From an uncultured Actinomycetes bacterium (GTDB lineage Bacteria; Actinomycetota; UBA4738; HRBIN12), in assembly GCA_963704725.1 (NCBI GenBank), contig OY969934.1:1376001-1440000 (forward strand): DNA of 64,000 nucleotides, in the 5' to 3' direction. The position numbers and the translations under genes were made by a program. The notes beneath the pieces are model-generated. The model saw only the letters and a list, made by a program, of their open reading frames with translations. It ran no database searches and had not been told where the DNA came from. Positions within the stretch are counted from its first letter, which is position 1. Every line of letters begins with the position of its first letter. This document shows positions 15,696 to 33,118 of this stretch, one piece after another.

Positions 15696-15770
15696 ATGCA
15701 AACGACATCGGACCGGTCAACTCGGCATGTTGGAGCGGCGGGAGCGTGATGGTTGCCGATCTCCTCCCAG

Positions 15771-15842
15771 TGCCCTCGGCAGGACTCGAACCTGCGCACC
15801 CGGCTCCGGAGGCCAGCGCTCTATCCACTGAGCTACGAGGGC
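15771..15842 (-). tRNA. tRNA-Arg(CCG)
   Basis: GCCCTCGTAGCTCAGTGGATAGAGCGCTGGCCTCCGGAGCCGGGTGCGCAGGTTCGAGTCCTGCCGAGGGCA cloverleaf; CCA not encoded; TAGACT upstream; usual position divergent from argS. Confidence 0.97.
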
Positions 15843-23189: not shown

Positions 23190-25388
23190 ATGACGACGGA
23201 CCCACACGGCCGCGACGACGACGCCGCGCAGGGATCCGAGCTGTCGGGAGCCAAGCCCGTCGTCGTCACCGACCTCGCGAGCAAGACCCTCGCGGTGAAG
23301 GAAGGCGACACCTTCCTCTACTCCGATCTCGAGGGGAACCTCGACCACGGCGGCGACTACGGCCTCGGCCTGTACGCCAAGGACACGCGGTTCCTCTCGC
23401 ACTTCAAGATGACGATCAACGGCCGGCCCCCGGTCCTGCTGTCGTCGTCGTCCGAGCGCGGCTACATGTCGCACGTCGACCTGACCAACCCCGACCTGTA
23501 CGACGACGAGGTCGTCACCGTCCCGCAGCAGACTCTCAACCTCCGCCGCATCCGCGCCATCAACGGCCGGATGTTCGAGCGCGTCCGGGTGAAGAACTAC
23601 AACCCGTTCCCCGTCACGCTCGACCTCGAGTTCCATCTCGGCGCCGACTTCGCGGACATCTTCGAGGTGCGCGGCATGACCCGGGAGGCGGGGCCCGCGC
23701 CGCGGCCTCCGGTGGTGCGCGACGGCGTGATCGAGTTCGTGTACGACGGTCGCGACGACCTCCGCCGCACCACGCGGATCGAGTTCGCCGGGCTGCCGGA
23801 TCGCATCGACGTCCACGGGCTGCTCGCGACCGCGGTCTTCCGCATTCACCTCGGCCCCTACCAGACCAAGCTCGTCGGGCTGTCCATCGATCCCGTCATC
23901 GAGGACGGGAGCCCGTCGTCGACGGACTTCGACCACGCGGTCCACGAGCTCCGCCGGTCGTACGAGGAATGGGAGCGGGAGTCCACCGAGATCGTGACGG
24001 ACAACGAGCTCTTCAACGAGCTGCTGGCGCGGAGCCGGCGCGACCTCAGGGTCCTCCACACCGACACCGACGGCGGCTCGGTCCTGGCCGCGGGCATTCC
24101 CTGGTACGTCACCGTCTTCGGTCGCGACGCGCTGATCGCCTCCCATCAGCTCTTGCTGGTGAACACGCGCCCGGCCCGCGAGGCGCTCGAGCTCCTCGCC
24201 GCCAAGCAGGGCACGACGATCGACGACTGGCGCGACGAGCAGCCGGGCAAGATCCTGCACGAGATCCGCCATGGCGAGTTCGCGCGCGCCGGGATCATCC
24301 CGCACACGCCGTACTACGGGTCGGTGGATGCGACGCCGCTGTTCGTCCTCCTCTACGCGATGCACCTCCGGTGGACCGGCGACGTCTCGTTCGCCGAGAA
24401 GCTCCTGCCGGCGGCCGAGGCGGCGCTCGGATGGATCGACCAGTACGGCGACGTGGACGGCGACGGTTTCGTCGAGTACCAGACACGCTCGTCTCGCGGG
24501 ATCCGCAACCAGGGATGGAAGGACTCGCACGACTCGGTCGTTCACGCCGACGGTCGCCTGGCCGAGCCCCCCATCGCGCTGGCGGAGGTGCAGGGATACG
24601 TGTACCTGGCGAAGCTGCGGATGACCGACGTGTATCGGGCGCTCGGTCGCCATGCGGACGCGCGGCGCCTGGTCGATGAGGCCGCGGCGTTGAAGCTCCG
24701 GTACAACGAGGCGTTCTGGATGGAGGACGAGCACTACTTCGCGCAGGCGCTCGACGCCGACAAGCGGCAGGTGCGCACCGTGACGTCCAACCCGGGCCAC
24801 GGTCTCTACTGCGGGATCGTGGACGACGACAAGGCCGTGCCGCTCGCCCGGCGCTTGCTCTCGCCCGACATGTTCTCGGGCTGGGGCATCCGGACGATGA
24901 GCAAGGCGGCCGCGGCGTACAACCCGATGAGCTACCACAACGGCTCGGTCTGGCCGCACGACAACGCGCTCATCGCTGCCGGCTTGAAGCGCTACGGCTT
25001 CGCCCGGTCGACGAACCGGGTGGCCACGGCGATGTTCGACGCGGCCGTGCAGGCCGACTACATGCGCCTCCCCGAGCTCTTCTGCGGGTTCACGCGCCGC
25101 ACGCCGAACCGCCCGGTCAGCTACCCGGTCGCGTGCTCACCCCAGGCGTGGGCCGCCGGATCGCCGTACCTCATGCTGCAGGCGATCCTGGGGATCTCGG
25201 CCCGGGCCCACGAGAACCTCCTCACGGTGAACCTCCCGCACCTCCCCACGTGGCTCAACACCGTCGAGGTGCGCAACATCCGGGTCGGCGAGAGCCGCAT
25301 CAGCATCGTGTTCCGGCGCGAGGGGGAGATCACGTCGTTCTCGCTGCTGGCGCGCGAGGGCGACGTGCGTGTGGTGATGGAGGAGTAG
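23190..25388 (+). CDS. Amylo-alpha-1,6-glucosidase-like (alpha/alpha)6 glycoside hydrolase
   Basis: AAGIPWYVTVFGRD, EQPGKILHE, YYGSVDATPLF, NQGWKDS, YHNGSVWPHDN and LPELFCG. Confidence 0.9.
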   Translation: MTTDPHGRDDDAAQGSELSGAKPVVVTDLASKTLAVKEGDTFLYSDLEGNLDHGGDYGLGLYAKDTRFLSHFKMTINGRPPVLLSSSSERGYMSHVDLTNPDLYDDEVVTVPQQTLNLRRIRAINGRMFERVRVKNYNPFPVTLDLEFHLGADFADIFEVRGMTREAGPAPRPPVVRDGVIEFVYDGRDDLRRTTRIEFAGLPDRIDVHGLLATAVFRIHLGPYQTKLVGLSIDPVIEDGSPSSTDFDHAVHELRRSYEEWERESTEIVTDNELFNELLARSRRDLRVLHTDTDGGSVLAAGIPWYVTVFGRDALIASHQLLLVNTRPAREALELLAAKQGTTIDDWRDEQPGKILHEIRHGEFARAGIIPHTPYYGSVDATPLFVLLYAMHLRWTGDVSFAEKLLPAAEAALGWIDQYGDVDGDGFVEYQTRSSRGIRNQGWKDSHDSVVHADGRLAEPPIALAEVQGYVYLAKLRMTDVYRALGRHADARRLVDEAAALKLRYNEAFWMEDEHYFAQALDADKRQVRTVTSNPGHGLYCGIVDDDKAVPLARRLLSPDMFSGWGIRTMSKAAAAYNPMSYHNGSVWPHDNALIAAGLKRYGFARSTNRVATAMFDAAVQADYMRLPELFCGFTRRTPNRPVSYPVACSPQAWAAGSPYLMLQAILGISARAHENLLTVNLPHLPTWLNTVEVRNIRVGESRISIVFRREGEITSFSLLAREGDVRVVMEE

Positions 25389-26277: not shown

Positions 26278-27459
26278 TCAGCGAAGGCAGGCGCCGGTGC
26301 CGACCGGGTCGGTCTCGCCGACGGCGTCGTCCAGGCGATCCCGCACGTCGCGAGCCGCTATCGCGTAGCCGACGTCCTCGTTCGTCGACGAGGCCGCGAA
26401 GACGACGCCGGCGACCGTGCCGTCCGCCAGCATGAACGGCCCTCCGGAGTTCCCCGGGCGGACCTCCGTCTGCAGCTCGATCACCAGACGGTCGACGTTC
26501 CCGGTCCCGTAGATGTCGTGCCCGAGGGCGGAGTACGAACGGAGCACGGCCGCGGGCGTGCCCGACAGTGGCCCGCCCCCGGGGTAGCCGAGGACCGCCC
26601 CGACCTCGCCCCGCTCGACGTCCCCCGAGGTGAGCACCAGGATGCGACCGATCGGCTGGCCCACGTGCACGACGGCCAGGTCCAGGTCGGGGTCGAAGAG
26701 CACGGTCGTCCCGTGCTGGGTCCCCCCGGCCGAGGTCTGCACGATCGGATCGTCCACGCCGGCCAGGACGTGCGCGTTCGTGACGACGTACCCGTCGGCG
26801 GCGACGAAGCCGGATCCCTCCTGCACGTGGCCGCAGGCCTCCCCCCAGATCTCCAGCGTGCTCCGGGCCGCGGCGTTGTAGGCGGCCTGCTCCTGCCGGT
26901 CGGTGGGCGGCGGGACGGGGGCGGCCGGCAGCGGCGGGATCCCCGAGAAGACGTCGGGGAAGCCGAACCGGTTGAAGAAGCGCCGGACCTGCCCGAGCAG
27001 CGAGGGCGGCTCGGGGAGCGCGTCGTCGAGCGTGCGCACGATCGCGGAGCCCCGGACCTCGCTGGCCAAGCCGGGGAAGGGGCCGTTGACCAGGTTCAGC
27101 GCGACGAACCAGATCGCCAGCAGCGAGGCCATCACCGCGACGACCGATCCCCCCACGGCGTCGGCGGGCGCGAACCGCGTGGCGCGCGCCCGCTCCCTGA
27201 TGCGATGGCCGAGGAACCATCCCGCCGTGTCGCCGACGGCCGCCAGGAGCAGGAGGGTCAGAGCGGTCAGGCCCGCCTGGGCGCCCGGCGAATCGGCCAG
27301 CCCCGCCACCCGCGGCGCGAGGAGCGCGCCGACGACGAGTCCCACGAGCAGACCGCCGAACGCGCACGCCTGCAGCATCACGCCGCGGCGGTAGCCGGAC
27401 ACGCCGGCGAGCGAGATCAGCAGGAACAGGGCCAGATCGAGCAGGTTCACGACCCGCAC
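26278..27459 (-). CDS. MarP-type membrane serine protease (CvpA-like TM region plus trypsin domain)
   Basis: Four TM N-terminus; VTNAHV, DLAV and GNSGGP triad; paired Cys. Confidence 0.9.
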   Translation of the reverse strand: MRVVNLLDLALFLLISLAGVSGYRRGVMLQACAFGGLLVGLVVGALLAPRVAGLADSPGAQAGLTALTLLLLAAVGDTAGWFLGHRIRERARATRFAPADAVGGSVVAVMASLLAIWFVALNLVNGPFPGLASEVRGSAIVRTLDDALPEPPSLLGQVRRFFNRFGFPDVFSGIPPLPAAPVPPPTDRQEQAAYNAAARSTLEIWGEACGHVQEGSGFVAADGYVVTNAHVLAGVDDPIVQTSAGGTQHGTTVLFDPDLDLAVVHVGQPIGRILVLTSGDVERGEVGAVLGYPGGGPLSGTPAAVLRSYSALGHDIYGTGNVDRLVIELQTEVRPGNSGGPFMLADGTVAGVVFAASSTNEDVGYAIAARDVRDRLDDAVGETDPVGTGACLR

Positions 27460-27530
27460 ATGGTCCCAAAGCGGCGACCCGTCGGCCGTGCCGGCTCCGG
27501 CGGCAGCCCTCCACTAGACTGGAAGCGGCC

Positions 27531-28334
27531 GTGGTCACGATCGCCCACATCTCGGACCCTCACGTCGGTTCCCCCTACTTCGTCCCCAACCTGATGCACC
27601 GCGTGATCGTCGAGCTGAACGAGCTGCAGCCCGACGTCGTGATCTGCAGCGGAGACCTGACCAACGAGGGGTATCGGCAGGAGTTCAAGAACTGGGTCGC
27701 GTACGCCCAGCGGATCCAGGCCCCCATGTTCACGGTCCCCGGCAACCACGACGCTCGCAACGTGGGCTACCTCCACTTCGAGGAGCTGATCGGCGCCCGC
27801 GCCTGGAGCACCGACGTCCAGGGTGTGCGCATCGTCGGCGTCGACTCCAGCGAGCCCGACATCAACGAGGGGCAGGTGGGCCGCGAGCGCTACGACTGGA
27901 TCCGGGAGCGCTTCGACGTCCCGGCGGACCTCAAGGTGTTCGTGCTGCACCACCACCTCCTGCCGATCCCGGGCACGGGCCGCGAGCGCAGCACGGTGAT
28001 GGACGCCGGCGATCTGCTGGAGGAGCTGATCTCGGCCGGGGTGAACATCGTGCTCTCCGGTCACAAGCACGTTCCGTACGTGTGGCGGCTCGAGGACCTG
28101 TACGTCGCGAACGCTGGGACCGTCGCCTCGCTCCGCGTCCGCGGCTACACCAAGCCGTGCTACAACGTGCTCGAGTTCGAGGGGGACCTGGTCAAGATCA
28201 CGCGGAAGTACCCGTTCGGCGCGGGGAGCGTGATCGCGCATTTCTCGCTGTCCACCGGCGAGCAGTTCTTCCGAGAGCTCGAGCCGCCGGTGCAGCCGCG
28301 GACCACGGTGTCGCAGGGGCATCAGGGGGAATAA
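27531..28334 (+). CDS. Calcineurin-like metallophosphoesterase (CpdA/Icc-like)
   Basis: HISDPH, SGDLT, PGNHD, LHHH and SGHKH motifs; TAGACT upstream. Confidence 0.9.
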   Translation: MVTIAHISDPHVGSPYFVPNLMHRVIVELNELQPDVVICSGDLTNEGYRQEFKNWVAYAQRIQAPMFTVPGNHDARNVGYLHFEELIGARAWSTDVQGVRIVGVDSSEPDINEGQVGRERYDWIRERFDVPADLKVFVLHHHLLPIPGTGRERSTVMDAGDLLEELISAGVNIVLSGHKHVPYVWRLEDLYVANAGTVASLRVRGYTKPCYNVLEFEGDLVKITRKYPFGAGSVIAHFSLSTGEQFFRELEPPVQPRTTVSQGHQGE

Positions 28335-28407
28335 CCCGCCGGACGATCGAGCCACCGCACCGGATCGATAGGTCCACCCACCCAGGAATCGGCACCCAGG
28401 AGGCGTC

Positions 28408-29745
28408 GTGAGGGTCCTCGTCCTCGTGGACGGCGAGCACTATCCACCCGTCACCCGGTGGGGGATCGAGGTCGCCCGAGGACGGGGCCTCGACCCCGTC
28501 GCCGCGCTGCTGGTCGGCGGCGTCGAGAAGCTGCGGCCGGGGGAGGCGCTCGACCTGGGAACCCCGGTCCGGATCGCGGGCGAGGACGTCGCCGCCTCCC
28601 TCGCCGCGGCAATCGAGGACCTGGCGCCGGAGGGTCTGCAGGGCGTGCTCGATCTGTCCGACGAGCCCGTCCTGGGCTATCGGGAGCGGATGGAGCTGGC
28701 CGCCGTGACCCTGATCCGGGGGTTGCCGTACGTCGGCGCCGACTTCCGGCTCGACCCACCGATCGATGGCCCGCCGCTCGAGGTGCCGGCGCTCGCGGTG
28801 ATCGGGACCGGCAAGCGAACGGGCAAGACCGCCATCGCCGGCGAGGTCGCCCGGACCGCGGTGGCGATGGGAGCCCGTCCCGTCGTCGTGGCCATGGGCC
28901 GGGGCGGTCCGCTCGAGCCGCAGATCGCGCAGGCCGGCAGTGTCACGCTCGATCGGTTGCTCGAGCTGGTCCGCAGCGGAGAGCACGCGGCGTCGGACTA
29001 CCTCGAGGACGCGGTGACGACCGGCGTGACGACCGTCGGGGCCCGGCGTGCCGGCGGAGGGCTGGCCGGCCGGCCGGCCGCCACCAACCTCCGGGAGGCC
29101 GCCGAGCTCGCGACGGGTCTCGGCGCCGGGATCGTGATCCTGGAGGGGAGCGGCTCCGCGATCCCCCCGGTCCCCTGGGACGCCGGCGTGCTGGTTGCGC
29201 CCGCCTCGCTCCCCGTCGAGTACCTGGGGGGATACCTGGGACCGTTCCGACTCTTGCTATCCAACCTGGTCGTTGTTACCATGGGTGCCAGCCCAGCCGG
29301 GCTCGAGAACCTCCCTGTCTTCAGATCCCTCGTCCAGCGACTGCATGGTGATGCCCGGCTCATCGTGACGGATCTCCATCCACAGCCGCTCGGCGATGTC
29401 GAGGGCAAGGACGTGTTCTTCACCACGACGGCGCCGGGGCCGGTCGCGAAGAGGCAGGCCGGGTCCCTGGAACGGAACCACGGCTGCCGTGTGGTGGGGT
29501 GGAGCGCTCGTCTTGCCGACCGGGCGGGGCTGGCGCGAGACCTGGACGGCGCCGGAGGGTACGAGGTGCTGCTCACCGAGTTGAAGGCGGCCGCGGTGGA
29601 CGTGGCCTGCGAGCGGGCCCTCGCGCGGGGCGCGGAGGTCGTGTTCGTCGACAACCGGCCCGTCCCGATGGAGGGCGAACCCGATCTCGGGTCCGCGCTG
29701 AGGGAGACGATCGAGCTGGCCGTGGAGCGGAAAGCCGACAGATGA
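28408..29745 (+). CDS. cpgS: Cyclic 2,3-diphosphoglycerate synthetase
   Basis: LVDGEHYPPV, DLSDEPVL, IGTGKRTGKTA, MGRGGP, HAASDYLED, RRAGGGLAG, LEGSG and LLTELKAAAVD match the CpgS motif series as I recall it. Confidence 0.88.
   Translation: MRVLVLVDGEHYPPVTRWGIEVARGRGLDPVAALLVGGVEKLRPGEALDLGTPVRIAGEDVAASLAAAIEDLAPEGLQGVLDLSDEPVLGYRERMELAAVTLIRGLPYVGADFRLDPPIDGPPLEVPALAVIGTGKRTGKTAIAGEVARTAVAMGARPVVVAMGRGGPLEPQIAQAGSVTLDRLLELVRSGEHAASDYLEDAVTTGVTTVGARRAGGGLAGRPAATNLREAAELATGLGAGIVILEGSGSAIPPVPWDAGVLVAPASLPVEYLGGYLGPFRLLLSNLVVVTMGASPAGLENLPVFRSLVQRLHGDARLIVTDLHPQPLGDVEGKDVFFTTTAPGPVAKRQAGSLERNHGCRVVGWSARLADRAGLARDLDGAGGYEVLLTELKAAAVDVACERALARGAEVVFVDNRPVPMEGEPDLGSALRETIELAVERKADR
29254..29282 (+). 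promoter_or_regulatory. Internal sigma70 promoter within cpgS
   Basis: TTGCTA-N17-TACCAT with extended TG, in a locally AT-richer patch. Confidence 0.55.
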
Positions 29746-30755
29746 CGCCAGACACCGGTACCCCTTCCCGATCCGGGACGGGGCCCGACACCGGTTCCGA
29801 GAGCAGGAACGAGCCTCGGAGCCCGCGCATCCTCATCCACGACGGTCCGTCCGGACTGCCGTACTCGAAGGGTCTGCGAGCGTCCGAGGTCATGGTGACC
29901 GGTCTGTCGCCATATCGCGCCTACCAGGTCGCCGAGGCCGTGGAGCAGCGGCTGCTCGAGCGGGGCGCGGCCTCCGCGACGAGCGAGGAGCTGGGTGACC
30001 TGACCCTCGAGGTCATCGAGGAGCTGGCCGGCGAGCGGTACGCCGACAACTACCGGCGGTGGCGGGAGGTGGAGGCGCTCGACGTCCCGATGGTCGTCCT
30101 GATCGGCGGGGCGACGGGGGTCGGGAAGTCGACCATCGCCACCCAGCTCGCGACGCGACTGGGGATCGTCCGGGTCGTCGCCACCGACGCGGTTCGAGAG
30201 GTCCTGCGCGCCGTCTTCTCCCGGGAGCTCATGCCGACCCTGCACACGTCGTCGTTCGAGGCGGGGGAGGTGCTGCGGGAGCCGCCATCGCGCGACGCGG
30301 TGGTGGTGGGGTTCCGCGAGCAGACGGCCGCCGTCGCGGTCGGCGTGAACGCGCTCCTGGATCGCGCAGCGATGGAGGGGACGAGCCTCATCATCGAGGG
30401 CGCGCATATCGTCCCGGGGTTCCTCGAGGCGAGCGCCTGGGAAGACCGCGTGCTGGCGGTGCCGGTGATCCTCACCGTGGACGAGGAGGATGCGCATCGC
30501 AGTCACTTCGCGGCTCGCGCGGCCGATCACGCGGGCCGATCCGCCTCCCGGTACCTCGAGCAGTTCGACCACATCCGGCGGGTGCAGCGCTACATCAAGA
30601 ACCAGGCGCTCTCGCACGGCGTGCCGGTCATCTCCAACTTCAACTTCGACCGCACCCTGGCGGCCGTCATCGACCTCGTGATGGAGCGCGCGACCGGGCG
30701 GATCGCGGGTCACCGCCCGCGCGTCGGATCCGCGACCGAAGGAGGGACCCCGTGA
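29742..30755 (+). CDS. pgk2: 2-phosphoglycerate kinase (ATP-cone plus P-loop)
   Basis: LPYSKGL, LIGGATGVGKSTIA, ATDAVREV, PTLHTSSF and IIEGAHIVPG; ATGA overlap with cpgS. Confidence 0.87.
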   Translation: MTPDTGTPSRSGTGPDTGSESRNEPRSPRILIHDGPSGLPYSKGLRASEVMVTGLSPYRAYQVAEAVEQRLLERGAASATSEELGDLTLEVIEELAGERYADNYRRWREVEALDVPMVVLIGGATGVGKSTIATQLATRLGIVRVVATDAVREVLRAVFSRELMPTLHTSSFEAGEVLREPPSRDAVVVGFREQTAAVAVGVNALLDRAAMEGTSLIIEGAHIVPGFLEASAWEDRVLAVPVILTVDEEDAHRSHFAARAADHAGRSASRYLEQFDHIRRVQRYIKNQALSHGVPVISNFNFDRTLAAVIDLVMERATGRIAGHRPRVGSATEGGTP

Positions 30756-31414
30756 AGCTGTTCCTGGACACCGCGAACATCGAGGAGATCCGAGAGATCA
30801 ACCGATGGGGCGTGCTGCGTGGCGTGACCACGAACCCGTCGCTGATCTTCAAGGAGAAGCTGGACCCGGAGCGGGTATGGAAGGAGATCCTGGCCGAGGT
30901 CGACGGCGACGTGTCGCTCGAGACCACCGAGCCCGAGCCGGGCCCGATGTACGAGGAGGGGCTCCGGCTGGCCCAGATGGCCCCGAACGCCGTCGTGAAG
31001 GTCCCCATGACGGAGGCCGGGCTCGAGGCCGGCAAGCGCCTCGTCGACGACGGGATCCGGATCAACGTGACGCTCGTGTTCTCCCCGGCCCAGGCGATCC
31101 TGGTGGCCGAGGTGGGCGCGTACATCGTGTCCCCGTTCCTGGGGCGACTGGACGACGCCGCGGCAGACGGGATGGACGTCCTTCGGAAGATCTGCGAGAT
31201 CTACGAGGTTCAGGGGTATGAGACCAACGTGCTGGCCGCGTCCCTGCGGCATCCCATGCACGTCGTCGAATCCGCGCTCGCCGGGGCCGACATCGCCACG
31301 ATGCCGTATGCGGTCTTCAAGCAACTGGTCAAGCACCCGCTCACCGACGTTGGAAACGAGAAGTTCCTCCGGGACTGGACGTCCCTCAAGGAGGAGCTGG
31401 AGAAGGGAGCCTGA
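30752..31414 (+). CDS. tal: Transaldolase / fructose-6-phosphate aldolase (short type)
   Basis: FLDTAN, GVTTNPSL, VVKVP, NVTLVFS, SPFLGRLDD and HPLTD. Confidence 0.92.
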   Translation: MKLFLDTANIEEIREINRWGVLRGVTTNPSLIFKEKLDPERVWKEILAEVDGDVSLETTEPEPGPMYEEGLRLAQMAPNAVVKVPMTEAGLEAGKRLVDDGIRINVTLVFSPAQAILVAEVGAYIVSPFLGRLDDAAADGMDVLRKICEIYEVQGYETNVLAASLRHPMHVVESALAGADIATMPYAVFKQLVKHPLTDVGNEKFLRDWTSLKEELEKGA

Positions 31415-33118
31415 GTGGCAACCATGGAGAAGAGCGCCCTCGAGGGCAAGGTCGCGTCCGAGCTGCACCAGATCGCGTCCGACCTCGGGATCGAGGGGCA
31501 CAAGGGGCTCAAGAAGGCCGATCTGATCGATCGCATCCTGACGCACGCCAACGGCGCGCGGTCGGGCGGCGTCGCGACGGCGCCGGCCCCGGCCCCCGCG
31601 CCGGAGTTGACGGCCGGCCCGGCCGAGGAACGTCGGGCCGCCGGCAACGGCGAGGCACGCATCGACATGCGCCCCGCCCCAGGCAACGGAGAAGGCAGCT
31701 CGCAGGAGCGTCGGGACGACCGTCCGCCGCGCGACCGGTTCGAGCCCCGCGGGGGCGATCGGACGAACGTGCGCGAGGGTGGTCCTGTTCGCGACCGTGA
31801 GGGGGGTCCTCCCCGCGGCCGCGAGGGCGGGCAGCAGCGCGAGGGCGGTCCTCCCCGCGACCGCGAGGGCGGGCAGCAGCGCGAGGGCGGTCCTGCCCGC
31901 GACCGCGACGCGAGCCGTCGCCGGCCGTCCCGGGAGGAGCGCCGCCGACAGCGGGAAGAGCGCCGGGTTCGCGAGTTCGAGGTCCGCGAGGAGGAGCTCG
32001 CCACCGCCCCGACCGCGACCGGGCTGCTCGACATCCTGCCCGAGGGATACGGGTTCCTGCGGACCTCCGGGTTCCTGCCGGGCCCGCAGGACATCTACGT
32101 CTCGCTGTCGCAGGTCCGTCGGTTCATGCTGCGCAAGGGCGACACGGTCACCGGCAAGGTGCGCCAGCCGAAGGACAGCGAGAAGTACTTCGCGCTGCTG
32201 CAGATCGACACCGTGAACGGCGTCGACCCCGAGACTGCGAAGGCCCGGCCCGTCTTCGAGAAGCTGACGCCGCTGTTCCCGCACGATCGGTTCCGGCTGG
32301 AGACCGGACCGACCGACGTGACCGGCCGCATCATCGACATGGTCTCCCCGATCGGCAAGGGGCAGCGGGGGATGGTCGTCTCCCCGCCGAAGGCCGGCAA
32401 GACGACCGTGCTGAAGAACATCGCAAACGGGATGATCGCCTCGAGCCCGGACACGCACGTGATCATCCTGCTCGTCGACGAACGGCCCGAGGAGGTCACG
32501 GACTGGCAGCGCACGGTGTCGGCGGCGGAGGTCGTCTACTCGACCTTCGACAAGCCGCCGGACCAGCACATCCAGGTGACCGAGCTCGTGCTCGAGCGGG
32601 CCAAGCGTCTGGCCGAGATGGGCAAGGACGTCACGATCATCCTCGACTCGATCACCCGGCTCGCGCGCGCGTACAACCTCGCCGCGCCGGCCTCGGGCAA
32701 GATCCTGTCGGGGGGCATCGACTCGACGGCCCTGTACCCGCCGCGGCGGTTCTTCGGCGCCGCCCGCAACATCGAGGAGGGCGGCTCGCTCACGATCATC
32801 GCGAGCGCGCTCGTCGAGACCGGCTCCCGGATGGACGAGGGTATCTTCGAGGAGTTCAAGGGCACGGGGAACATGGAGATCCGCCTCGACCGCCAGATGG
32901 CCGAGAAGCGCATCTTCCCCGCGATCAACGTCGAGGCCTCCAGCACGCGCAAGGAGGAGCTGCTCCTGCCGACCGAGGAGCTCGCGCTGGTCTGGCGGCT
33001 CCGACGGGTGCTGCACGCGCTCGAGCCGGGCGCCGCGCTCGAGCTCCTCACCGACAAGATCCGTCAGACGAAGTCCAACGAGCAGTTCCTGAGGGAGATC
33101 GCCAAGGCCCCGTCGTAA
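31415..33118 (+). CDS. rho: Transcription termination factor Rho with N-terminal insertion
   Basis: GYGFLR, DIYVS, PIGKGQRG, PPKAGKT, DERPEEVTD and EEFKGTGNME. Confidence 0.97.
   Translation: MATMEKSALEGKVASELHQIASDLGIEGHKGLKKADLIDRILTHANGARSGGVATAPAPAPAPELTAGPAEERRAAGNGEARIDMRPAPGNGEGSSQERRDDRPPRDRFEPRGGDRTNVREGGPVRDREGGPPRGREGGQQREGGPPRDREGGQQREGGPARDRDASRRRPSREERRRQREERRVREFEVREEELATAPTATGLLDILPEGYGFLRTSGFLPGPQDIYVSLSQVRRFMLRKGDTVTGKVRQPKDSEKYFALLQIDTVNGVDPETAKARPVFEKLTPLFPHDRFRLETGPTDVTGRIIDMVSPIGKGQRGMVVSPPKAGKTTVLKNIANGMIASSPDTHVIILLVDERPEEVTDWQRTVSAAEVVYSTFDKPPDQHIQVTELVLERAKRLAEMGKDVTIILDSITRLARAYNLAAPASGKILSGGIDSTALYPPRRFFGAARNIEEGGSLTIIASALVETGSRMDEGIFEEFKGTGNMEIRLDRQMAEKRIFPAINVEASSTRKEELLLPTEELALVWRLRRVLHALEPGAALELLTDKIRQTKSNEQFLREIAKAPS
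31772..31908 (+). repeat. Imperfect 42-bp in-frame tandem repeat in the rho insertion
   Basis: Encodes REGGPPRGREGGQQ-REGGPPRDREGGQQ-REGGPARDR. Confidence 0.8.

Follow-up and report, generated by a model that had tools for sequence, protein, structure and literature searches.

Cyclic 2,3-diphosphoglycerate (cDPG) is made by 2-phosphoglycerate kinase (2PGK) and cDPG synthetase (cDPGS), as described in passages of the literature. A passage of PMC10690619 states that the compound occurs exclusively in hyperthermophilic methanogens, and the reference list of that paper cites Sastry 1992 for the enzymatic degradation of cDPG to 2,3-diphosphoglycerate. Passages of Roberts 2005 (PMC1224877) describe a cDPG hydrolase activity in M. 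thermautotrophicus as membrane-bound and inhibited by K+ and inorganic phosphate (Pi). The cDPGS of M. fervidus is described as reversible in a passage of PMC1224877. In this study, we analyzed a metallophosphoesterase gene that lies directly upstream of a cDPGS gene (cpgS) in a 64,000-nucleotide stretch of DNA from an uncultured Actinomycetes bacterium (GenBank assembly GCA_963704725.1, contig OY969934.1, positions 1,376,001 to 1,440,000); the whole stretch is referred to as the window. The gene product is a candidate cDPG hydrolase that would open the cyclic pyrophosphate to 2,3-diphosphoglycerate (2,3-DPG), an assignment to which we give not quite an even chance.

The activities closest to the proposed function are the cDPG hydrolase activities of Methanothermobacter (Sastry et al. 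1992; van Alebeek et al. 1994). They represent the reaction proposed for the window protein, but they come without an attached sequence, and the window protein has no membrane segment. No gene assigned to cDPG hydrolase, no paper linking a metallophosphoesterase to cDPG, and no report of bacteria making cDPG was found in the literature searched, which covered few subscription journals. The original prediction likewise named no firmly assigned gene. The hydrolase of the 1992 work is reportedly a soluble protein of roughly 33 kDa, to which the window protein, soluble by prediction and of 30 kDa, comes close.

By sequence, the best matches in the Protein Data Bank (PDB) are Rv0805 of Mycobacterium tuberculosis and GpdQ of Enterobacter aerogenes (E about 1e-9). 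Both belong to the class III phosphodiesterase branch and share with the window protein five metal-binding or catalytic motifs and a similar size. The best fold matches, including these two enzymes, have TM values of 0.65-0.73 at 18-22% identity. Apart from this low identity, Rv0805 and GpdQ differ from the window protein in their gene context, and the HHHLxPxPGTGRER, SSEPD, and GT..S.R.RG blocks are specific to the subfamily of the window protein.

The protein had initially been called CpdA-like, and the argument for ring opening had started from the premise that enzymes of the CpdA group open cyclic phosphate rings. The CpdA/Icc 3',5'-cyclic adenosine monophosphate phosphodiesterase shares its superfamily with the window protein, and public records give the name CpdA/Icc to relatives of the phosphoesterase in many automatic annotations. 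However, the NCBIfam CpdA/Icc model NF008359 scores the window protein at 41.8 bits against a cut-off of 225. This score and the Rv0805 and GpdQ matches place the phosphoesterase in the broad class III phosphodiesterase branch and not among the CpdA/Icc orthologs. The label is therefore weak, given a score far below the cut-off and the 18-22% identity to Rv0805 and GpdQ, and the premise carries little weight for a protein that is not a CpdA/Icc ortholog.

The phosphoesterase and the cpgS product

The gene pair and the kinase gene that follows it occupy the following positions in the window.

27531..28334, plus strand: cpgS-associated dimetal metallophosphoesterase of 267 amino acids (aa) with the signature HHHLxPxPGTGRER, recognized from the open reading frame (ORF), Pfam, homologs, alignment, and an AlphaFold2 model
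28335..28407, plus strand: 73-bp spacer between the phosphoesterase gene and cpgS, with AGGAGG at 28398-28403
28408..29745, plus strand: cpgS, cyclic 2,3-diphosphoglycerate synthetase homolog of 445 aa, matching PDB 8ORU/8ORK
29742..30755, plus strand: 2-phosphoglycerate kinase homolog of 337 aa (NF003259)

The expected intact dimetal metallophosphoesterase was confirmed, as was its position, co-directional with and 73 bp upstream of a true cpgS. The ORF runs intact from a GTG start to a TAA stop at 28332-28334. The start is supported by homologs whose alignments begin at residue 1-2 and by a GGAAG located five bases before it. The product has a mass of 30.0 kDa and a pI of 5.6, and is predicted to be soluble; its Kyte-Doolittle maximum of 1.02 (19-residue window) corresponds to no hydrophobic stretch. 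All five superfamily motifs are present (D9-x-H11, G41-D42, G71-N72-H73-D74, H140-H142, and G177-H178-K-H180), and Pfam Metallophos (PF00149) matches residues 3-182 with an E value of 1e-20. The cpgS product matches the Methanothermus fervidus enzyme (PDB 8ORU/8ORK) with an E value of 6.9e-93 over residues 2-440, with the Walker A motif and other invariant residues conserved in the alignment. No Pfam or NCBIfam model matches the window cpgS product. The kinase matches NF003259 with an E value of 7e-88 and 294.9 bits, under the 343-bit cut-off of that model. Its ATG at 29742 overlaps the cpgS stop by 4 bp (ATGA).

The database holds 6908 relatives of the phosphoesterase at E<=1e-5, of which the best 120 are 74-91% identical to it, and the family is thus under strong constraint. 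In a 29-row alignment of Actinomycetota members (44-91% identity), the superfamily motif residues are invariant, and four further blocks characterize the subfamily: HHHLxPxPGTGRER (140-153), SSEPD..G..GR (106-118), GHKHVP..W (177-185), and GT..S.R.RG (196-205). For membership in the subfamily, the signature HHHLxPxPxTGRER + SSEPD..G..G + GHKHVP..W was used, and the window protein carries it at 140-153, 106-117, and 177-185, respectively. In addition to the metal ligands, basic residues are conserved (R76, R90, R118, R151, R153, K179, R202, and R204), and such an arginine-rich signature would suit a small polyanionic substrate. Since the catalytic apparatus is complete and invariant, the protein is predicted to be an active hydrolase.

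The AlphaFold2 model has a pLDDT of 86.4 and a pTM of 0.86. A Foldseek search against the PDB gave 374 matches at E<=0.001; the top 41 listed all have the metallophosphoesterase fold, and the fold matches include purple acid phosphatases. A Protein Atlas search returned metallophosphoesterase clusters only, which are commonest in Actinomycetota. The phosphoesterase represents a subfamily of its own, associated with cpgS, within a known enzyme superfamily.

Co-occurrence of the phosphoesterase with cpgS in Actinomycetota

Presence was called in a sample of 401 Actinomycetota genomes at E<=1e-10 for cpgS and at E<=1e-25 for the phosphoesterase, and the two genome lists were compared by eye. Up to 15 of the tallied genomes are marked unpublished. 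cpgS was found in 230 genomes and the phosphoesterase subfamily in 227. Both were present in 225 genomes and neither in 169, with cpgS alone in five (G019, G177, G195, G281, and G391) and the phosphoesterase alone in two (G117 and G315). The subfamily was therefore found in just two of the 171 cpgS-negative genomes. The miss in G195 is attributed to an assembly artefact, because its cpgS sits at a contig end. When 30 families were tallied by name, the counts of cpgS and the phosphoesterase were identical in 27 and differed by one genome in three.

A gene resembling the glycoside hydrolase GDE, a neighbor of the phosphoesterase gene, was used as a control. It was present in 172 of the 401 genomes, in a pattern unlike that of cpgS. 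The GDE-like gene occurred in 20 of 21 genomes of family f11, none of which has cpgS; in none of the 28 genomes of f18, all of which have cpgS; and in nine of 22 genomes of f1, where cpgS was found in 21. Shared ancestry of neighboring genes alone does not, therefore, yield the match between the phosphoesterase and cpgS. Of the genes tested, cpgS is the one to which the distribution of the phosphoesterase is most closely tied.

Adjacency to cpgS

Adjacency was scored from the best 150 positions per search, which left 109 genomes common to both lists (three of the 105 adjacency genomes, G088, G332, and G318, are marked unpublished). In 105 of the 109, the phosphoesterase gene immediately precedes cpgS on the same strand. 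The gap between the matched stretches ranges from 14 to 831 bp, with a median of 68. In the remaining four genomes, the two genes are on separate contigs. The 831-bp gap belongs to G038, where a 264-aa ORF with no Pfam match stands between the two genes (L018:7944-8738).

Twenty loci were picked for family diversity and long contigs. The phosphoesterase gene and cpgS adjoin in 18 of them, the kinase gene follows cpgS directly in 19, and the aldolase gene lies downstream in 16. Genome contigs were also scanned with a cpgS alignment, and the best 80 of 573 matches were inspected; this set overlaps the 401-genome sample, from which it is not independent. All but one have Actinomycetota-type record titles, and one is titled Burkholderiales. 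Among these 80 loci, the phosphoesterase gene is upstream of cpgS in 61 and missing in 14, and five have too little upstream DNA. The kinase gene is downstream in 79, the other locus being short of downstream DNA, and the aldolase gene in 69.

Family f16 lacks the kinase and aldolase genes at this locus, and the phosphoesterase gene and cpgS are still adjacent in 3/3 loci. A kinase homolog of 37% identity is found elsewhere in the genome of one f16 member (G056). The GDE-like gene is directly upstream of the phosphoesterase gene in nine of the 20 diverse loci and 24 of the 80 cpgS-centered loci. In three loci from other families (L005, L009, and L018), it ends 9-31 bp upstream. Genome G000 has a second GDE-like copy at C1:383670-385691.

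Proposed role in cDPG turnover

In the proposed scheme, 2PGK and cDPG synthetase would build cDPG and the phosphoesterase would break it, so that the three genes form one make-and-break unit. Ring opening to 2,3-DPG would be the mobilizing arm. The phosphoesterase gene, cpgS, and the 2PGK gene are probably co-transcribed, given their common orientation and a 73-bp spacer in which no terminator-like site turned up. cDPG may then be a phosphate, carbon, or energy store that is made and broken by one operon. If the enzymes are produced jointly, the enzymes themselves would need to be regulated to avoid a futile cycle. The original prediction had drawn the unit as a three-gene circuit. The order of phosphoesterase gene, cpgS, and 2PGK gene stands; the string does not stop at three genes but runs on into the aldolase gene and rho.

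Genes for the synthesis and breakdown of a storage compound are found in one unit in the E. coli ppk-ppx and glycogen operons. The window locus would likewise pair make and break genes in one transcription unit. The proteins are unrelated, and the product is a small cyclic molecule, whereas those of ppk-ppx and the glycogen operons are polymers; hence the comparison is an analogy only. A breakdown gene in a synthesis string fits the storage role proposed for cDPG in passages of PMC10690619 and PMC1224877.

Ring opening is the favored reaction. The distribution of the phosphoesterase is tied to cpgS, whose two metabolites are 2,3-DPG and cDPG. Moreover, each phosphorus of cDPG has one ester and one anhydride bond and is diester-like, as are the substrates of the nearest relatives. 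Metallophosphoesterases that cleave pyrophosphate bonds are known, for example LpxH, ApaH, and ADPRibase-Mn. Overall, the observation underlying the cDPG hydrolase interpretation is confirmed, and the interpretation itself is partly supported.

A number of points weigh against this interpretation. Chemically, the ring of cDPG is a pyrophosphate, that is, an anhydride, and not a cyclic phosphodiester. A hydrolase made from the transcript of the synthetase would run an ATP-wasting cycle unless regulated. The window protein has no membrane segment, whereas the hydrolase described in a passage of PMC1224877 is membrane-bound. As the substrate, cDPG and 2,3-DPG fit the genomic evidence equally well. 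Related genomes do not count as independent cases, and the whole block is syntenic, with rho downstream in 19 of the 20 diverse loci and 64 of the 80 cpgS-centered loci; because the block including rho is syntenic in the phylum, adjacency alone is weak evidence. Seven Methanobacterium-like contigs with a subfamily match show no cpgS or kinase gene within the 1-8 kb available on either side. In addition, the two genes are not always linked. The phosphoesterase gene is not upstream in 14 of the 75 cpgS loci that have at least 700 bp of upstream DNA. In G078, a genome of family f6, cpgS and the kinase gene lack an upstream phosphoesterase gene, and the sole member of the subfamily in this genome (48% identity) lies on a different contig. 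The cpgS loci of G401, G403, G404, and G405 also lack the gene, and these genomes have unlinked copies only (45-49% identity). In G402, no phosphoesterase was found at E<=1e-8, and its cpgS locus lacks one too. G019 (95% complete) has cpgS and 2PGK genes and no subfamily member, the best match being a superfamily member of 27% identity (E 4.5e-10). Conversely, G117 (98% complete) has a copy of the unlinked type and neither cpgS nor the kinase gene. These exceptions indicate that the phosphoesterase is dispensable for the cpgS-2PGK pair, and an accessory, catabolic, or regulatory role suits it better than a biosynthetic one.

Alternative functions were weighed against ring opening. The protein could be a 2,3-DPG phosphatase, a monoesterase converting 2,3-DPG to 2- or 3-phosphoglycerate, which would control how much of the intermediate is present, or finish mobilization after a reversed synthetase reaction. 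Co-occurrence and adjacency apply equally to this function, 2,3-DPG being the substrate of the cpgS product, and the superfamily includes monoesterases, with purple acid phosphatases among the fold matches. The reversible cDPGS of M. fervidus, as described in a passage of PMC1224877, could open the ring without a hydrolase, so that ring opening need not require one. On the other hand, the gene accompanies cpgS in f16 rather than the kinase gene whose product forms 2,3-DPG, and the nearest solved relatives, Rv0805 and GpdQ, are diesterases. Neither observation is decisive, and we regard a 2,3-DPG phosphatase as unlikely. The substrate could also be some phosphoester unrelated to cDPG (for instance a cyclic nucleotide, lipid head group, or nucleotide derivative), which we judge equally improbable; adjacency to cpgS would then be inherited synteny. 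The CpdA/Icc name in public records, the synteny of the whole region including rho, the unlinked copies beside plsC-like and gpsA genes or S-adenosylmethionine (SAM) hydroxide adenosyltransferase genes, the G117 copy without cpgS, and the archaeal contigs without linkage are all consistent with such a substrate. It accords poorly with the presence of cpgS in 225 of the 227 genomes that have the subfamily and the rarity of the subfamily where cpgS is absent (2/171), with the different behavior of the GDE control, and with the low CpdA score.

Two further functions would leave the phosphoesterase outside cDPG breakdown. As a helper of synthesis, it would, for example, clear away a by-product of the kinase or synthetase that is toxic or mis-made, or supply a precursor. 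It is the first gene of an otherwise biosynthetic string, no terminator-like site was found in the spacer, and joint production with synthetic enzymes makes more sense if the protein assists them than if it opposes them. However, the cpgS-2PGK pair persists without the phosphoesterase in several lineages, and we know of no candidate side product of either enzyme. A helper role is accordingly quite improbable. That the main function of the protein is to bind the synthetase and regulate it is hardly credible: conserved adjacency is all that speaks for it, and the catalytic residues are invariant across the family, which points to an active enzyme. Ring opening of cDPG is the function favored here.

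Unlinked copies and paralogs

Unlinked copies keep the full subfamily signature. A tree was built from 52 of 91 sequences. Besides the window protein, it took in the unlinked copies (12, none omitted) and the linked copies from the 20 diverse loci and two f16 loci; linked copies at the remaining loci were thinned to every third one, and matches of <200 residues were dropped. Thirty-six linked rows fall in one group. Family f16 has extra phosphoesterase paralogs, and these form one well-supported clade (99) with the f16 linked copies. The other unlinked copies are in a weakly supported group (SH-aLRT 85-89%) with no clean split from the linked clade. They may be relocated orthologs or an old paralog.

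The unlinked copy of G078 has ABM, EamA, acyltransferase, and gpsA genes as neighbors. It stands divergently beside the plsC-like acyltransferase gene and gpsA, a glycerol-phosphate or lipid context (L107:7958-10589). Of three f16 paralogs with scanned neighbors, two adjoin SAM hydroxide adenosyltransferase genes (L111:6853-7677 and L114:9067-9924). G315 (89% complete) has a phosphoesterase copy and a kinase fragment and no cpgS. In G019, a peptidase S49 gene lies between the GDE-like gene and cpgS, in the usual place of the phosphoesterase gene (L021:6414-7349).

The subfamily beyond Actinomycetota

A search of 1.84 billion representatives gave 193 subfamily matches at E<=1e-30. Among the matches listed are single-domain proteins of 35-45% identity and a tandem form of ~490-560 residues with two phosphoesterase halves (P0127, P0128, P0132, and about 25 others). 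In the tandem form, the signature is usually in the first half alone, and the cluster names include Methanomicrobia and Thermococci metagenome-assembled genomes. The signature is kept in 11 further representatives, five of them in clusters with archaeal names. Two methanogen-named clusters have members, Methanobacterium sp. (270 aa, 38%) and Methanobrevibacter sp. DSM 116169 (248 aa, 42%); the methanogens are the group in which cDPG and its hydrolysis are described (passages of PMC1224877). Other member clusters are Altiarchaeales, Wukongarchaeota, Diapherotrites, and Gaiellaceae. Apparent fusions of the phosphoesterase with cpgS (17 of 150 representatives listed) were rejected as evidence, because frameshifts or run-through in gene calling are as likely. 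In most of them, portions of the genes are skipped or repeated, and the ones looked up belong to clusters with a single member.

A metagenome scan with the Methanobacterium-type protein yielded the seven Methanobacterium-like contigs, of 28-32% G+C, and in four of them the phosphoesterase match is split into several pieces. Their neighboring genes include a ligase gene, a rhodanese gene, and an acetyl-CoA-synthetase-like gene. The original prediction had looked for co-occurrence and shared neighborhood with cpgS in both bacteria and archaea. This is strongly positive within Actinomycetota (225 genomes sharing both genes, 105/109 adjacent), with the exceptions given above, and cpgS does not adjoin the gene in the seven archaeal-type contigs. 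In one of these contigs, a helix-turn-helix (HTH)-PhoU regulator gene lies two genes downstream of the phosphoesterase gene (L122:6031-6930), and phosphate control may be involved.

The presence of cpgS homologs in 230 of 401 Actinomycetota genomes, and of 573 relatives in genome contigs, is set against the methanogen-only view of cDPG expressed in a passage of PMC10690619. It is possible, although on the doubtful side, that the subfamily is the gene-less cDPG hydrolase and that cDPG, rather than being a peculiarity of hot-spring methanogens, serves widely as a store of phosphate, carbon, or energy in Actinomycetota lineages known mostly from metagenome assemblies, made and broken by one operon like ppk-ppx. 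If so, an activity so far without a gene would have one, and the physiological role of cDPG, store or protectant, would be open to genetics. Enzymatic production of cDPG (PMC12136491) would gain a known degrading activity to avoid or exploit. A cultured carrier exists in Thermoleophilum album (WP_093115957.1, 280 aa, 48% identical), which makes a test of the hydrolase function practical.

Neighboring genes and signals in the window

The genes and the intergenic region around the unit are as follows.

23190..25388, plus strand: GDE-like glycoside hydrolase gene (GDE_N_bis, MGH1-like GH, GDE_C), a neighbor whose membership in the system is not shown
26278-27459, minus strand: MarP-like gene
27460..27530, no strand assigned: divergent intergenic region of 71 bp from the MarP-like gene to the phosphoesterase gene, where the promoter of the unit probably lies
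30752..31414, plus strand: fructose-6-phosphate aldolase/transaldolase-type gene

In the window, two minus-strand genes stand between the GDE-like gene and the phosphoesterase gene. A signal scan found no sigma-70-like or terminator-like sites in 27200-31500, and no Rfam family was found in 27460-27530. For 27300-31500, no RNA data set was listed, and four DNA runs cover small shares. Downstream, the aldolase GTG at 30752 and the stop of the kinase gene share bases (GTGA), and 31415, the base that follows the aldolase stop, opens the rho ORF. More than three genes are therefore co-directional, and the string runs on into rho. In the whole window, a single tRNA is the only Rfam family at the gathering score; this tRNA-Arg (CCG), at 15770-15842 on the minus strand, is the sole RNA gene found there.

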